Positions 26,320 to 32,841 of a stretch of DNA of 39,757 nucleotides are shown piece by piece. Every line of letters starts with the position of its first letter. Within the stretch, counting starts at the first letter, position 1. A program made the translations under genes and the position numbers. This DNA comes from an uncultured archaeon (lineage in GTDB: Archaea; Asgardarchaeota; Thorarchaeia; Thorarchaeales; Thorarchaeaceae), in the NCBI GenBank assembly GCA_964631415.1, contig CAZVZC010000015.1, positions 1-39,757 on the forward strand, read 5' to 3'. The notes below the pieces were generated by a model. That model was not told where the DNA came from. It searched no databases and saw only the letters and a program-made list of their open reading frames with translations.

Positions 26320-27873
26320 TTGAACGAGGATCCTTCAGTCCATGCATGTCAAGTGTGCGGAAGCAATCGAGCCACTCATCTCTGTGAGGACTGCGGAGAG
26401 ATACTGTGTCTGGACTGTATGGAAACGAAGTCCAGTGTGCATTATGTGTGCAGTAATTGTCATCATGCGCTAGGGACACCGCGGCCGGGGGAGAAGTTCG
26501 AGAGATGCCCCGAATGTGACTCGAAAGAGCTGAGCCTTGGCAAACGCCTAGAAGAGATCTGTCCGAGATGTCACTCCGCGCGTACGACTCCAATCGAGGA
26601 GAGGAGAAGGGCTCTTGCACAGGACATGCGGCGTGCAATCATGAGCATCCAGTACGGCCACATAAGGCTGAGAGACTTCACGAATAGGCTCACAACAGCG
26701 AAAAGGCTTCTAGTTTCTCTCAGGATGGCCAACTTCCTCCACTATCGGTGGTTGGAAGATAAAATCGAGGACATACAGACTGAGCTTCCGGCCATCAAGA
26801 ACAGGGTTGCCAATCAGGCTGAGATCGTAGCCAAGCAGATGAGCGCTGAAACCAAGGGCTTTCTCGACTATAACACATGGTCAGCAGCTCAGTTCCCCTT
26901 CATAGGGGGAGTAACCAACCGCATAACAGAACTTGGCAATCAGTACAGGCGCAATGTGGATGAGGCTCTTGAGAGTGTACGACTGACAATCTCGGACCTG
27001 GAACAGCAACTGGATGGACTGGACTACTACAAGAAGCAGTTTGCAGGTTTCTACGAAACTGCCGAGCTATCGGTCAACGAACTGCCAGTCTGTGCCTTGC
27101 CTGAGATAAGGATAGCAGGCAGTGACTTCCTGAAAAATGACAAGGCCCTGGGCACGCTCTACATAACGAACAGGAGACTCGTCTTTATAGCTGAGACAGG
27201 TCGGCTACGCAAGAAGACTGACATCGTATTCGACTTCCCTCTCATGTATCTGAAAAGCATTGAAGGGGACGGTCGTCTGAGGAAGAGAGTTGTCCTGAAG
27301 ATGAAGCAGGGCGACGTTAGGCTGTCCTGTAACGAGCAGACAGAGAAAGTGCTGCCAGACTACGTTGAGATCGCCAGGAAGTTTGACAAGTACATGCAAT
27401 CGGATCTTCAGAGGACGAGAAAGCTCGGCCAATCAGATACCACCATCAGCGATGTCAGACTCAAAATCGAGGAGCTTGTCTACTCACTTCTCTCCTCAGG
27501 CGCCGCGGTGAACCAAGGCAGAGGAGCCACACAGGCAATCGGCGCATATCCGAAACAAATGGGGCCATATCCGGGCGTCACCCAGTTTCGAGGTGACTTC
27601 CAGCAGAGCAGCAGTCCCTACTTGCGTGACCGACTGAGAAGGGACCTCGAAGGCATGTTTGAGAACCGAGGACAGCCACATGGACCCGATGGCTCAAACA
27701 GTGGCATGTCCAACAGCGACATGTTGGTCATCAATGATGCGATAAGGGACACTGTGCACCTCTTCAGGAGCGGGCAACTGGTGCCCGAGGACTTCATCAG
27801 GCGATACAAGGGTCTCATGCGTGACTCGTACGACACTAAGAGAAGACTCGAGTCTGCTCCAAGATATGGATAG
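26320..27873 (+). CDS. ESCRT-I-like multidomain protein: B-box/Zn fingers, coiled coil, PH/GRAM(GLUE)-like domain, steadiness box
   Basis: CQVC..ATHLCEDCGEILCLDC B-box-like plus three more CxxC; long helical region; GTLYITNRRLVF PH/GRAM motif; C-terminal INDAIRDTVHLFRSGQL..EDFIRRYKGLMR resembling the Vps23/37 core; adjacent to ESCRT genes. Confidence 0.72.
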   Translation: MNEDPSVHACQVCGSNRATHLCEDCGEILCLDCMETKSSVHYVCSNCHHALGTPRPGEKFERCPECDSKELSLGKRLEEICPRCHSARTTPIEERRRALAQDMRRAIMSIQYGHIRLRDFTNRLTTAKRLLVSLRMANFLHYRWLEDKIEDIQTELPAIKNRVANQAEIVAKQMSAETKGFLDYNTWSAAQFPFIGGVTNRITELGNQYRRNVDEALESVRLTISDLEQQLDGLDYYKKQFAGFYETAELSVNELPVCALPEIRIAGSDFLKNDKALGTLYITNRRLVFIAETGRLRKKTDIVFDFPLMYLKSIEGDGRLRKRVVLKMKQGDVRLSCNEQTEKVLPDYVEIARKFDKYMQSDLQRTRKLGQSDTTISDVRLKIEELVYSLLSSGAAVNQGRGATQAIGAYPKQMGPYPGVTQFRGDFQQSSSPYLRDRLRRDLEGMFENRGQPHGPDGSNSGMSNSDMLVINDAIRDTVHLFRSGQLVPEDFIRRYKGLMRDSYDTKRRLESAPRYG

Positions 27874-27888: not shown

Positions 27889-28512
27889 TTAGACGCCTAG
27901 CTCCTTCTCAAGCGACTTGATAGCTTCCTCGAGCTCCTCGGCCTCGGTCACTGGTCGCGTGCCTGAAGGCGCGCCAGCAACCCCTGCAGCTGCATCTATC
28001 TCCTCCATAGCAGCTGCCATGTCCTCTGAGGTCACCTGACTCTCTTTTGTCGAAACGAGAGCCTCCTCTGATATGCCGCTCTCAATCTCGAACTCCTCAA
28101 GCCTGTGAGTAATCTCATCCAGATTCTGAATAACCTTCGTCGAGTCTGTTGCCTCGCTCAACGTGCCAAGTATCTTCGCAACCTGTTCAACTGCTACTCC
28201 AGTCTTAGCGGTAGTCTGGGCCCGAGTGATGTGAGCGAGCACCCTCAGGAGATGAAGACGTGAACGATCAACTGACAGAGCAAATCTCCTGAAGCGGATC
28301 ATCTCCGCCGCGTAGGTCCTGTATGCGTCCGTGTGACCCTCCTTTCGGGCACGAACTGCTCGGGCCTTAGTATCGCGCTCCTCTTTCTCAAGCCTGTTCC
28401 TCTCACGCTCAAGCTGCTTAGTCAGTATTCTGAGCTGGCTTGTGGCCTCTGTGATATCGGGCTTCCTACGACCCCACGACATCGCCTTCTTGATTGTACC
28501 CAATGGGCTCAC
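27889..28512 (-). CDS. ESCRT-III Snf7-family protein, Vps2/24/46 (CHMP1-3-like) class
   Basis: LRILTKQLERERNRLEKEE..TK.....ARKEG...AYRTYA.EMIR; basic N-half and acidic C-half; C-terminal amphipathic helix EELEEAIKSLEKEL (MIM1-like). Confidence 0.88.
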   Translation of the reverse strand: MSPLGTIKKAMSWGRRKPDITEATSQLRILTKQLERERNRLEKEERDTKARAVRARKEGHTDAYRTYAAEMIRFRRFALSVDRSRLHLLRVLAHITRAQTTAKTGVAVEQVAKILGTLSEATDSTKVIQNLDEITHRLEEFEIESGISEEALVSTKESQVTSEDMAAAMEEIDAAAGVAGAPSGTRPVTEAEELEEAIKSLEKELGV

Positions 28513-28656: not shown

Positions 28657-29892
28657 ATGGCACGCGAACACGAAATGTCAGGATCAGACGATGACAGGCT
28701 GGACTTGGGACTTAAGGCTCTCCTGGAGAAGGCCATTGACCTTGATGACAGAGGCATGAAGAAGGAGGCCTGCCAATACTACCTCAAGGCCAGCAAGATC
28801 CTCATCAAGCTCTCCAATTCGACCTCACTGCCATCACTCCGCAAGCACTACTTTGACCGAGCTCAGGAGTGTGTGGACCGCGTGAAGCGCATCTCTGGAG
28901 CAAAGGGAGTCGCTGGTCCACCAGACAGTCTCGGAAGACTGGTGACACAACCAAGAGAGAAAACCGTGGCACGGTCGGCATCAGAGGAAACCGGGGAAGT
29001 CGACGAGGACACAAAGAGGCTTCGTGAGATGACTGCGGACACCATCATAACTGAACGGCCCGATGTCAAGATGTCGGAAGTCGCGGGGCTAGAGGAGGCC
29101 AAGCAGGCAATCCAAGAGGCTGTGGTCGCCCCGATGAAACACCCGGAGCTGTTCAAGGGAAAGGCAAGACAGCCATGGAGGGGGATCCTGTTCTATGGAC
29201 CAGCAGGCTGTGGTAAGACTCTCATAGCAAAGGCTGTTGCCTCCGAGGTGAATGCGACTTTCTTCAACGTGTCAGCTGGGAACATAGTGAGCAAGTGGTT
29301 GGGAGAGTCTGAGAAGCTTGTCATGACACTGTTCGAGATGGCAAGGAAGAATCAACCATCGATCATCTTCGTGGACGAACTTGACTCTGTGGGTGTTTCC
29401 AGATCCGATCACGATGTTGGAGGCGAGCGACGACTCAAGACCCAACTGCTGACTGAGCTTCAGGGAGTGGCCAGCGACCCGAAGGAACGAGTCACAGTCA
29501 TTGGTGCCACCAACCTACCATGGCAACTTGATTTTGCCCTTAGGTCTAGGTTTGAGAAGAGGATCCACATTCCCCTCCCGGGAAAGGCATCACGACGAAC
29601 GGTGTTTGAGCTGCATATGGAGGATGTGGAGGTCTCCCACGATGTTGACTTCGACGAACTCGCAGACCTGACACAGGGCTACAGTGGTCGGGACATCAGC
29701 ATTGTGTGCAGGGAAGCAGCCATGGAGCCTATTAGAGATCTCCAGAGCACTGGAGAAATGGACCGCGATGGCCCGATTGAAAACCTCCGACCCGTTTCAA
29801 GACAGGATTTCCTCCGAGCCGTTGACAGCATCGGACCCGGTACCTCTCCCGAGGATGTGAAGAAGTATGTCGATTGGGCGGAGGCAACATAG
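28657..29892 (+). CDS. vps4: Vps4 AAA+ ATPase with N-terminal MIT domain
   Basis: MIT (LLEKAIDLD..G...EAC.YY.KA...Y.DRA); GPAGCGKT, SKWLGESEK pore loop, IIFVDELDS, RRLKTQLL, ATNLPW.LD.ALR.RFEKR. Confidence 0.93.
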   Translation: MAREHEMSGSDDDRLDLGLKALLEKAIDLDDRGMKKEACQYYLKASKILIKLSNSTSLPSLRKHYFDRAQECVDRVKRISGAKGVAGPPDSLGRLVTQPREKTVARSASEETGEVDEDTKRLREMTADTIITERPDVKMSEVAGLEEAKQAIQEAVVAPMKHPELFKGKARQPWRGILFYGPAGCGKTLIAKAVASEVNATFFNVSAGNIVSKWLGESEKLVMTLFEMARKNQPSIIFVDELDSVGVSRSDHDVGGERRLKTQLLTELQGVASDPKERVTVIGATNLPWQLDFALRSRFEKRIHIPLPGKASRRTVFELHMEDVEVSHDVDFDELADLTQGYSGRDISIVCREAAMEPIRDLQSTGEMDRDGPIENLRPVSRQDFLRAVDSIGPGTSPEDVKKYVDWAEAT

Positions 29893-29895
29893 TCC

Positions 29896-30624
29896 GTGAG
29901 TGTGAAGGAACGACGAAGGCAGAAGGAGCGACCCAAGGCTCGAAGTGAGTCCAAGTTTCAGGAAGGTTCAGTGGACACTGAAGCAAACATCGAAAGCGTC
30001 GTCACCTCCGAACAGATCGAAACACCTCTAGAAACGCTCGAAGCAACTCCAGTTGTTGAGTCTGAGCCGCAGGTCTCGGAGCCAATCACCGAGGCAACTG
30101 CAGAGGCTCTCGTGCCACAGGTCCTTCTGCCGCGCTGGGGTGACAACAGAGAGTCACAATGGATGTACCAGATTCCTCCCAGAGATGAGGACAGAAACAT
30201 GTGGATGGATGAATGGGCCGACTTCGTGATCCAGTGGACCCAGTCAGAAGGCCTGCACGTCCTCTCTGTTTCAGCCTTCATCAAGGAACCACCTTTCAGA
30301 GACATGCTTGGAAAAGTGGAAGCTTTCAGACTGATTGGAAACACGCTGGTCGAGAAGGGAGTTGCGGAATGGCTTGATGACAAGAAGCGCCAACTCCGAG
30401 TATACTGGAGACCCCTTGAGGAATGGGCCGACATGATATATGGGTGGGCTATTGAAACGGGCAATCTACACCTCGATGTCAAGTCCATAATCATACAGGA
30501 AGCGGGCAAGGAGTTTGCCACTCTCCCTGAGAAAGACCTGCATCAAGTAATGGAGATGCTTGTCGACAGAAGGGTGGCAGAATGGGTGGATAGGAAGAAG
30601 GGGGCAATACTAATCCGAGTGTGA
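29896..30624 (+). CDS. vps25: ESCRT-II subunit Vps25 homolog with acidic N-terminal extension
   Basis: W...WADFV..W, PF, LVEKG.AEW....LRVYWRPLEEWADMIY.W, EF..L....L...L.....AE tandem winged helices; directly downstream of vps4. Confidence 0.85.
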   Translation: MSVKERRRQKERPKARSESKFQEGSVDTEANIESVVTSEQIETPLETLEATPVVESEPQVSEPITEATAEALVPQVLLPRWGDNRESQWMYQIPPRDEDRNMWMDEWADFVIQWTQSEGLHVLSVSAFIKEPPFRDMLGKVEAFRLIGNTLVEKGVAEWLDDKKRQLRVYWRPLEEWADMIYGWAIETGNLHLDVKSIIIQEAGKEFATLPEKDLHQVMEMLVDRRVAEWVDRKKGAILIRV

Positions 30625-30629
30625 TTCGC

Positions 30630-31367
30630 CTATACCGAGCCGTCCCTGCCTCGAAGTCCCGGGAAGTAATATCGTCCCCCGGTCGAGAAACGGATGTCAG
30701 CGACAGCCATGCCTGAGTCAACTAGGCTAGACAGGACTTGGCGCGCGTGATCCTCAGACCACTTCAGCTGTATCATGAGTTCCTCTATCGAAACTTGCCC
30801 CTTTGTAGCGGCTATGTTGATGACGTCAGCTTGGTCTCTGCGCAGCTCAAGCGGACGCAGCTCGACAACCTTTACCCCGCCCCTCAGTGTTCTGATGCCA
30901 GGGATGAGACCATGTTCTGCAACACGGTTCACGGCCTCAATCACGTCGTTGTAGCTCACGGACTTGAGTTCTGGGAGAAGGCGCACTACTTCGACTATGA
31001 GTTCCGCCAGTCCCATGAGGCCCTTAGATGCATTTGCCGTCGCAACATCAAGCACGGCCAACCCGATATGGTCGTAGTATTCCTCGGTCGTCATGCCCTC
31101 AATCGAAGCCATTCCACTCTTGCCGTGAAGGCCCAGCATAACCGACGCGTCCGGGAATGACTCAAGCACTCTCTCTTGGTCGATGAAGTTGACAGGATCG
31201 ATGCCCATGCGTCGCAGGTCTTCGATACCGCCCTTGACCTCTGCAAGAAGCGCATCTGATTCCCTCTGATATGACCGTACGTCGACGGCGCCCATGTCGT
31301 ACATTTTCTTGAGCTGGTCCAGCGTCGCAATCGACGCATAGAGCTCGGATTGGAGTCGCTCACTCAT
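30630..31367 (-). CDS. Fusion of Vps28 N-terminal (ESCRT-I) domain and EAP30/Vps22-36 (ESCRT-II) winged helices
   Basis: N-terminus SELYASIATLDQLKKMY..G.V....Y....LL; C-terminus YYDHIGLAVLDV...GLMGLAEL...VSYNDVIEAV...PLELRRDQ..VI..A...G.VS...L.WS..ARQVL..LV..G....D...YYFP. Confidence 0.82.
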   Translation of the reverse strand: MSERLQSELYASIATLDQLKKMYDMGAVDVRSYQRESDALLAEVKGGIEDLRRMGIDPVNFIDQERVLESFPDASVMLGLHGKSGMASIEGMTTEEYYDHIGLAVLDVATANASKGLMGLAELIVEVVRLLPELKSVSYNDVIEAVNRVAEHGLIPGIRTLRGGVKVVELRPLELRRDQADVINIAATKGQVSIEELMIQLKWSEDHARQVLSSLVDSGMAVADIRFSTGGRYYFPGLRGRDGSV

Positions 31368-31464: not shown

Positions 31465-32841
31465 CTACGGTGTCAGTCTATCGCGGTCTCTTGGGAACAG
31501 AGTCGCTTCTCTGATGTTGTCAATTCCCAGCACCTGCATTGTCAGGCGTTCGACACCCAGACCGAGTCCTCCGTGAGGAGGTGCACCGTACCTGAATGGG
31601 TCGATGTAGAAACTGAAGTTGTCTGGATTGAACCCCTTTGCCTTGAAACGCTCCACGAGAAGGTCGTGGAGGTGTATGCGCTGGCCGCCAGTTGTGATTT
31701 CCATGCCCTTGTACAAGAGATCGAAACTCTCTGTCATTCCTTCATCTGTCAGACTTGGCATAGTGTAGGCCGGTCGCAGCTCAAGAGGATAGTGGGTCAC
31801 GAACACCATGTCAGTTCCATACTTCGTGGGGAAGACCTCTCCCAGAATGTGCTCGCAGTCCGGGTCGAGGTCGTCGGTGTATGACAACTGCTTCCCTGTT
31901 TCGTTGACTATGTCAATGGCCTCTTTGTACTTCACTCTCTTGAACGGTACCTTTGGGATCTTCAGATCGATTCCGAGTAGATCAAGCTCAGCGGCGGCCT
32001 CCTTGGCAGTCTTCTCAAGGGAGTGGTGCAGCATCTTCTCCTCCATGCTCATCACATCCTCAACATCGCTGATCCACGCCATCTCGAAGTCAAACGAAGT
32101 ATACTCGTTGACGTGACGGCGGGTGTTGTGTTTCTCGGCACGGAACACAGGGGCGATTTCAAAGACTCTGCCGAACCCGGCCAGGAGCATCAGCTGCTTG
32201 TAGAACTGCGGGCTCTGTGCAAGGTAGGCCTTTCTATCGAAGTACTTGACCTCGAAGAGATTCGCGCCACCTTCTGTGGCTTCCGCTACGATCTTTGGTG
32301 TGTGTATCTCGACAAAATCGTTCTTCTCAAGAAACTCACGCGCATGCTTCACGAGGCAATGTTGCACTCTGAATACTGCATTCACCTTGGGTTTGCGAAG
32401 GTCCAGAACACGGTGGTTGAGCCGGGTTTCGAGGTCTATGTCAGCTTTGCCTTCCACGATGTCGATTGGCAGTCGTTCAGCAGTGTTGATGAGGCGAATC
32501 TTGCTGGGTATGACTTCCACTCCGCGTTCGACCTGATCTGCGACGACCACTGTTCCACGAACAATCACTGCCGATTCTGGCTTGAGCTGGCCAGACAGTT
32601 CGAACACATCTGAGGGGACCTTCGCCTGGGGTATTGTCACCTGAACCGTGCCACGCTCGTCCCTCAGGATCAGAAACTTGATCCTTCCCTTGTCACGGAG
32701 GATATGGACCCATCCGATCAGCGTCACTTCCTTGCCAGCAGTCTTTGGGGTCACTTCGCTTGTGAAATGAGAACGCCTATCCTTGCCAATGCGCTCGACA
32801 CCAGCCTTGGCGTAGAAGTCTTGGTCATCTCGATCACTCAT
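31465..32841 (-). CDS. aspS: Aspartate--tRNA ligase (archaeal/eukaryote-like type)
   Basis: OB fold GWVH..RD.G.IKF..LRD; ATEGGANLF, AYLAQSPQFYKQ, FRAEK, GGQRIH, PPHGG.GLGVER. Confidence 0.95.
   Translation of the reverse strand: MSDRDDQDFYAKAGVERIGKDRRSHFTSEVTPKTAGKEVTLIGWVHILRDKGRIKFLILRDERGTVQVTIPQAKVPSDVFELSGQLKPESAVIVRGTVVVADQVERGVEVIPSKIRLINTAERLPIDIVEGKADIDLETRLNHRVLDLRKPKVNAVFRVQHCLVKHAREFLEKNDFVEIHTPKIVAEATEGGANLFEVKYFDRKAYLAQSPQFYKQLMLLAGFGRVFEIAPVFRAEKHNTRRHVNEYTSFDFEMAWISDVEDVMSMEEKMLHHSLEKTAKEAAAELDLLGIDLKIPKVPFKRVKYKEAIDIVNETGKQLSYTDDLDPDCEHILGEVFPTKYGTDMVFVTHYPLELRPAYTMPSLTDEGMTESFDLLYKGMEITTGGQRIHLHDLLVERFKAKGFNPDNFSFYIDPFRYGAPPHGGLGLGVERLTMQVLGIDNIREATLFPRDRDRLTP

Follow-up and report, generated by a model that had tools for sequence, protein, structure and literature searches.

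Background

The pre-eukaryotic hand-over from ESCRT-I to ESCRT-II is an open question, and a gene carried by Thorarchaeal archaea addresses it. In eukaryotes, the N-terminal domain of Vps28 packs with steadiness-box hairpins of Vps23 and Vps37, and the C-terminal four-helix bundle of Vps28 contacts ESCRT-II and ESCRT-III. In yeast, Vps28 grips the zinc finger of Vps36. The N-terminal helical domain of eukaryotic Vps22 helps to pair that protein with Vps36. To our knowledge, Asgard archaea lack the NZF zinc finger of Vps36. What, then, joins the two complexes in these organisms?

The gene studied here lies in a 39,757-nucleotide stretch of Thorarchaeal DNA (hereafter, the window) from a genome assembly of 2.16 Mb that is 85% complete. 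An earlier note, prepared from the sequence alone, proposed that the gene encodes the N-terminal domain of Vps28 fused to the winged helices of the Vps22/36 family, and that the product is a covalent bridge between ESCRT-I and ESCRT-II. In our judgment, it is likely that the gene is a lineage-specific Thorarchaeal fusion of the Vps28 N-terminal domain (residues 7-83) with the Vps22 winged helices (residues 97-245), that it originated by a deletion, and that it has a bridging role.

The domain architecture itself is already published, in the main text and Table S3 of Makarova 2024 (mBio, PMC10936438). That study described Asgard Vps22 family proteins (cog.002769) as fused to a steadiness box, and its Table S3 lists KXH75178.1 (1-70), a Thorarchaeota Vps22, with PF03997, the value 99 (HHpred) and the annotation "VPS28 N-terminal domain - SB". 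Judging from this label, the domain coordinates and the occurrence of one such protein per family genome, KXH75178.1 very probably belongs to the same family as our protein. The Thorarchaeota Vps22 of cog.002769 has the same architecture, a Vps28-N-like hairpin and then two winged helices, and the protein itself is no different. ThorAB25_09030, the Thorarchaeota Vps22 of the sequence list in Hatano 2022 (PMC9192718), was cloned in that study as "Vps22", and the available text makes no comment on its N-terminus. The sequence printed there is visibly of the same family and bears the same N-terminal motif.

What we add is that the fusion is restricted to one order, that it replaces a separate Vps28 as well as an ordinary Vps22, and that the N-terminal domain of Vps22 was lost along with the C-terminal domain of Vps28. 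We also provide a concrete, testable predicted interface with a partner protein. The order restriction and the double domain loss were found stated neither in Makarova 2024 nor in the available text of Hatano 2022.

Results and discussion

The fusion gene and its ESCRT locus

The fusion gene (30630-31367, minus strand) is a single uninterrupted open reading frame (ORF) of 245 codons that begins with ATG and ends with a stop codon at 30630-30632. Its start methionine is common to all homologues in the family alignment. The gene forms part of a five-gene ESCRT locus within the window. Convergent with it, across a gap of 5 nt, is the gene for the ESCRT-II subunit Vps25 (29896-30624, plus strand; Pfam ESCRT-II PF05871, E 2.5e-15). 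Next to this is a gene for the AAA ATPase Vps4 (28657-29892, plus strand), in which Pfam detects MIT, AAA and Vps4_C domains. The remaining two genes encode an ESCRT-III subunit of the Snf7 family (27889-28512, minus strand; Pfam Snf7, E 5.6e-10) and a 517-residue protein (26320-27873, plus strand) with zinc ribbons, a coiled coil, a PH/GRAM-like domain and a steadiness box (Znr_CC_PH_SB, asCOG cog.011556).

Paired locus tags from five further Thorarchaeota assemblies place the gene for the 517-residue protein and the fusion gene about four genes apart, and the five-gene locus appears to be conserved across Thorarchaeota assemblies. On its other side, the fusion gene lies 97 nt downstream of a gene on the same strand for a class II tRNA synthetase of the Asp/Lys/Asn type (31465-32841, minus strand). 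Co-transcription of these two genes is possible.

Recurrence of the fused ORF

The simplest objection to a fusion, raised in the earlier note, is that assembly or gene calling has joined two genes that are in fact separate. Clustered at 90% identity, full-length homologues (60-95% identity, 98-100% coverage) form more than 120 clusters, nearly all from Candidatus Thorarchaeota, with the same ORF length and the same junction. They come from many independent assemblies, with contigs of up to 3.1 Mb. We also built a profile from an alignment of the full-length family (A1; 26 sequences, 67% mean column identity) and used it to search 121 Asgard genomes. Of 17 other genomes in the window's family, 16 carry a single ORF that matches positions 1-245. 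The one sampled genome of a sister family in the same order (G112) also carries the fusion, matching positions 4-240 with E 2e-74. In addition, conservation hardly differs between the N- and C-terminal parts of the protein, whose mean column identities are 65% and 67%. An artefactual junction is therefore exceedingly improbable, and the recurrence of the fusion in other genomes, which the note proposed as a check, is confirmed.

The sister-family copy has the same convergent arrangement with vps4 and vps25, and its Pfam VPS28 score (26.9 bits) exceeds the gathering cut-off of 24.5 bits. The protein encoded in the window falls below this cut-off: PF03997 matches residues 7-48 weakly, with 14.3 bits when the whole protein is scanned and 16.4 bits when residues 1-92 are scanned. 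The Vps28 part is thus unproven by single-sequence Pfam searches, and is established by profile methods. Because the single-sequence signal is too weak, we used profile-profile and structural tests.

The N-terminal domain is that of Vps28

For profile comparisons, we aligned residues 1-92 of the fusion family (A2; 23 sequences, 65% mean column identity) and, separately, 18 genuine Vps28 proteins from other Asgard families that were found by searching genomes with PF03997 (A3). Positions 94-186 of the A3 profile match solved Vps28 C-terminal domains (2J9W, E 7e-13), and positions 1-86 match yeast Vps28 N-terminal domains; A3 therefore represents bona fide Vps28. In an hhalign comparison, A2 aligns with A3 over 77 ungapped columns, such that residues 7-83 of the fusion correspond to Vps28 positions 1-77 (probability 99.0, E 4.3e-18). 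We accordingly assign residues 7-83 (31119-31349, minus strand) to the N-terminal, or ESCRT-I headpiece, domain of Vps28.

The fusion N-terminus and Asgard Vps28 have in common the motif ELYA.IATLD.L, which opens helix 1, and a second block, F..E.I.E.FP.A, that lies in short helices. Since the common pattern extends past the helical hairpin into these short helices, the match is specific to the Vps28 N-terminal domain, and is not one to a generic steadiness-box hairpin.

Other sequence searches agree. When the A2 profile was run against PDB sequences with hmmsearch, all four best matches were yeast Vps28 N-terminal domains (E about 0.1). The same profile recovered 47 proteins from 1.84 billion representative proteins. 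After fragments of the family itself and one false positive were set aside, Pfam VPS28 matched nine of the ten recovered proteins that were tested with Pfam, seven of them above the cut-off. Proteins combining UEV, Vps23 and Vps28 are among those recovered.

Structure predictions point to the same domain. The AlphaFold2 (AF2) model of residues 1-92 (pLDDT 86.5) has the architecture of Vps28-N, that is, a helical hairpin (residues 2-24 and 30-53) followed by three short helices (residues 58-78). In a Foldseek search of the PDB with residues 1-92, the best 11 matches are Vps28 N-terminal domain chains, from 6VME, 2F6M, 2CAZ and 2F66. The 6VME chains superimpose with TM 0.74 and an rmsd of 1.8-2.0 Å over 79 columns, and the other seven matches have TM values of 0.50-0.74. 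The E-values are just 0.05-0.3, which is modest because the domain is small, yet the probability is 1.0 and TM reaches 0.74. The assignment of roughly the first 80 residues to Vps28, first suggested in the earlier note on the strength of a sequence pattern, is therefore upheld by every one of these comparisons.

Some other proteins found with the A2 profile deserve mention. A protein of 3237 residues (P0127) scores E 5e-20 against the 92-column profile by way of 26 weak repeats. It contains 24 Rx_N repeats, and we rejected it as a repeat-driven false positive; this case illustrates that the N-terminal profile can give high ranks to helical repeat proteins. P0140 is an Asgard protein of 388 residues with a UEV domain and a Vps28-N-like region, and without a Vps28 C-terminal domain detectable by Pfam. 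P0143 to P0145 are stand-alone Vps28-N-like Asgard proteins of about 130-140 residues, and a Pfam scan of P0143 gave no match.

A Vps22 core at the C-terminus

The C-terminal part of the protein is recognizable from a single sequence. Pfam EAP30 (PF04157) matches with E 2.4e-14 and 54 bits, relative to a cut-off of 26.8 bits. Positions 89-240 of the A1 profile match human SNF8/Vps22 (2ZME_A and 3CUQ_A, E about 1e-18), with no match upstream of position 89. An hhalign comparison of A1 with ordinary Vps22 from 11 other Asgard families (A4) aligns residues 97-245 only (probability 99.96, E 5.6e-39). The Vps22/EAP30 core thus comprises residues 97-238 (30654-31079, minus strand), in good agreement with the tandem winged helices that the earlier note had recognized at approximately residues 95-240.

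The AF2 model of the full-length protein (pLDDT 79) has two winged helices, WH1 at about residues 117-169 and WH2 at about residues 177-234, with a helix in front of them (residues 94-111). With this model, Foldseek ranks Vps22 chains best (2ZME_A, E 1e-8), and Vps36 chains follow. In the PDB, the A1 profile matches solely SNF8/Vps22 chains; the core is therefore closer to Vps22 than to Vps36.

Between the two domains is a linker, residues 84-96 (31080-31118, minus strand), that forms the fusion junction. It is modeled with low confidence (pLDDT below 50 at residues 82-88), and its columns are unconserved across the family. A junction near position 31120 had been proposed, and the boundary found here matches it, in that residue 83 ends at 31119.

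The ordinary Vps22 N-terminal domain is replaced

The most direct challenge to this interpretation is that the first 85 residues are merely the ordinary N-terminal helices of Vps22 or Vps36 in diverged form, so that nothing was fused. Two observations could be read this way. A six-frame Pfam EAP30 match reached profile position 11 over the N-terminal region, and Foldseek alignments of the full-length model to Vps22 cover about 220 columns. However, when the 23 N-termini were isolated and scanned with Pfam, VPS28 was matched in 19 of 23 and EAP30 in none. By hhalign, the fusion N-terminus (A2) has no similarity to ordinary Asgard Vps22 (A4; probability 0.5%, E 0.12), as opposed to the 99% obtained with Vps28. 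We dropped the six-frame match as evidence after these two results. The structural neighbors of the fusion N-terminus, as noted, are Vps28 N-terminal chains only. Diverged Vps22 or Vps36 helices, which the earlier note had named as the finding that would overturn its proposal, are thus an explanation to which we give next to no credence.

Ordinary Asgard Vps22 proteins begin differently. Their profile aligns end to end with human SNF8 (profile positions 8-243 to chain residues 10-240, E 9e-39), from which it follows that they have a eukaryote-like N-terminal helical domain. The N-termini of these proteins bear a motif that differs from that of the fusion, and their profile has no similarity to Asgard Vps28 (A4 versus A3, hhalign probability 0.7%). 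These sequence comparisons indicate that the N-terminal helical domain of Vps22 (human residues ~1-87) is replaced in the Thorarchaeal fusion. The loss of this domain was missed in the earlier note.

The fusion can accordingly be compared with two canonical proteins. It has in common with canonical Vps28 (PF03997; yeast 2F6M, 2CAZ and 2P22, human 6VME; about 205-235 residues in Asgard archaea) the N-terminal core, in both sequence and fold, but it lacks the C-terminal four-helix bundle and has winged helices in its place. With canonical Vps22/SNF8/EAP30 (PF04157; human 2ZME_A and 3CUQ_A, yeast 1U5T_A; about 245-250 residues in Asgard archaea) it shares the tandem winged-helix core and a gene position adjoining vps25 and vps4, but not the N-terminal helical domain that is kept in eukaryotes and other Asgard archaea.

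Distribution and the separate genes of other Asgard archaea

In all other Asgard families with matches, the A1 profile is split over two ORFs. Positions 4-85 match a separate Vps28 ORF, and positions ~78-246 match a Vps22 ORF of about 250 residues, with some matches extending further upstream. In all 11 of the other Asgard families examined, vps28 immediately precedes vps22 on the same strand. At the closest, these genes overlap by one base, and at the widest they are about 450 nt apart; the stop and start codons often overlap.

Pfam VPS28 is found above the cut-off in 134 of 201 Asgard genomes, versus none of 43 genomes in the window's family, in a survey whose genomes are a sample and in many cases incomplete. 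Among the genomes sampled, only those of the Thorarchaeal order carry the fusion. On this point our results differ from Makarova 2024 (PMC10936438), in which the steadiness box is presented as general to Asgard Vps22. Given that the 11 other families have a eukaryote-like Vps22 N-terminal domain and a separate vps28, the published Asgard-wide statement seems to hold for Thorarchaeia only.

Loss of two domains and origin of the fusion

The fusion protein ends in its winged helices, and the Vps28 C-terminal four-helix bundle is absent from it. We searched for this bundle elsewhere by using a profile of the Vps28 C-terminal domain alone (A6). None of 41 genomes in the family yielded a match (the window's own and 40 others; 20 are at least 90% complete), nor did the sister-family genome G112. 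As a positive control, the same profile matches four of four genomes from other Asgard families. The earlier suggestion that the bundle is absent therefore holds for the protein and for the genomes searched, and the fusion stands in place of separate vps28 and vps22 genes instead of adding to them.

The Vps28 C-terminal domain and the Vps22 N-terminal domain are each conserved between eukaryotes and other Asgard lineages. Because both lost domains are shared in this way, the separate genes are ancestral, and the Thorarchaeal gene is derived. Most likely, judging from distribution and synteny, an in-frame deletion fused an ancestral pair of adjacent vps28 and vps22 genes. Such a deletion would have run from the interdomain linker of Vps28 to the linker in front of the first winged helix of Vps22. 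One event could thereby have removed both the four-helix bundle at the end of Vps28 and the helical domain at the start of Vps22.

A fusion that likewise puts Vps28 on a neighbor's polypeptide, shortening the ESCRT chain, is the Heimdallarchaeial UEV-Vps23-Vps28 protein (HeimAB125_14070) described in Hatano 2022 (PMC9192718). That fusion lies within ESCRT-I and retains the Vps28 C-terminal domain, whereas the Thorarchaeal fusion joins ESCRT-I to ESCRT-II and has dropped it.

A predicted partner encoded in the same locus

The 517-residue protein encoded in the locus is a candidate partner of the fusion. Its first 90 residues contain six conserved Cys/His pairs. Beyond these come a long coiled coil, a PH/GRAM-like core with weak Pfam matches only, and a variable Gly/Pro/Gln-rich linker that precedes a conserved C-terminal hairpin. 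The conserved CxxC pairs and the C-terminal hairpin are evident in an alignment of the family (A5), which comprises more than 160 clusters, almost all from Thorarchaeota. This family is described as Znr_CC_PH_SB in Makarova 2024 (PMC10936438), and the orthologue ThorAB25_08990 is labeled "SB" in Hatano 2022 (PMC9192718). Pfam finds no family at E up to 10 in the last 87 residues, so the steadiness-box label rests on these two papers and on the co-folding result that follows.

When residues 430-517 of this protein were co-folded with residues 1-85 of the fusion, the median score was 0.69, whereas the best control scored 0.02. Among solved complexes, 58 of 80 attained the score mark used, as did 2 of 110 mismatched pairs. 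At least 81% of contacts are common to the runs, and the partner has a pLDDT of at least 83. In the predicted complex, the steadiness-box hairpin (residues 479-508; 27754-27843, plus strand) contacts residues 3-40 of the fusion. The predicted contacts include helix 1 residues 11, 14, 15, 18 and 19 of the fusion and residues 492, 496, 500 and 501 of the partner.

The predicted interface is enriched in conserved positions. By our own count, residues that are at least 90% conserved make up 7 of 17 interface residues of the partner, versus 5 of 71 other residues within 430-517. On the fusion side, also by our own count, the corresponding numbers are 10 of 21 and 16 of 64. The invariant face of helix 1 of the fusion coincides with this predicted heterotypic interface. 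The co-fold thus supports, but does not demonstrate, docking of the Vps28-N hairpin on the steadiness box of the 517-residue protein. The passing score may be partly due to likeness to the solved complex of the Vps23 C-terminus with Vps28-N (2F6M).

Possible roles of the fusion

The fusion probably hard-wires two membrane-sorting complexes, ESCRT-I and ESCRT-II, together. We infer the "covalent bridge" function proposed at the outset, and the co-fold with the neighbor's steadiness box gives it some backing. The following scheme can be envisaged. The Vps28-N hairpin would pack on the C-terminal steadiness-box hairpin of the 517-residue protein, forming a bundle like the ESCRT-I headpiece. The Vps22 winged helices would bind the neighboring Vps25, as suggested by gene adjacency, and Vps25 would recruit ESCRT-III and Vps4. 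A single polypeptide would then substitute for the non-covalent contact between Vps28 and ESCRT-II. Thorarchaeota, the lineage in which this would occur, are reported to lack UEV-Vps23 (2023 preprint, 10.1101/2023.07.25.550441), and seemingly also ubiquitin, according to Hatano 2022 (PMC9192718).

A different role is conceivable for the same hairpin. It could be a self-association module that takes over from the lost Vps22 N-terminal domain, so that the protein forms a Vps22 homodimer and bridges nothing. Consistent with this idea, the ordinary Vps22 N-terminal domain is missing from the fusion, steadiness-box hairpins are generic bundle formers, and Thorarchaeota Vps22 self-interacts in a yeast two-hybrid assay reported in Hatano 2022 (PMC9192718). 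However, the co-fold with the neighbor's steadiness box passes strongly relative to its controls, and it is the heterotypic interface of that co-fold onto which the invariant face of helix 1 maps. Moreover, self-association is compatible with a bridge. The Vps23 of Odinarchaeota forms a dimer that binds one Vps28 (Hatano 2022, PMC9192718), and an assembly of two steadiness boxes with one Vps28-N would allow both activities. Homodimerization with no bridge at all therefore seems to us unlikely, and self-association through this hairpin, either as an alternative or in addition to the bridge, is a live issue.

The natural joining of Vps28-N to the Vps22 core indicates that, in Asgard archaea, both proteins act within a single assembly, and it points to the domains that are dispensable once Vps28 and Vps22 are joined. 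A more far-reaching reading, which we offer tentatively and hold to be somewhat doubtful, treats the gene as a Rosetta stone. Given that the deletion would have removed exactly the Vps28 C-terminal domain and the Vps22 N-terminal domain, these two domains might constitute the direct contact between ESCRT-I and ESCRT-II in other Asgard archaea, where the Vps36 NZF is missing. Thorarchaeia might then run a merged, ubiquitin-independent ESCRT-I/II whose sole upstream component is the protein with the zinc ribbons, coiled coil, PH domain and steadiness box.

A second protein with EAP30-like winged helices

Outside the window, on another contig (C2; L068:1448-3862, minus strand), a gene encodes a protein of 804 residues that has a coiled coil in its center and ends in an EAP30-like tandem winged helix. 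Pfam EAP30 matches this protein with E 1e-3, and positions 88-245 of the A1 profile match it with E 1e-23. Orthologues of about 780-890 residues are present in most genomes of the window's family. This protein may be a second, Vps36-like subunit of ESCRT-II.
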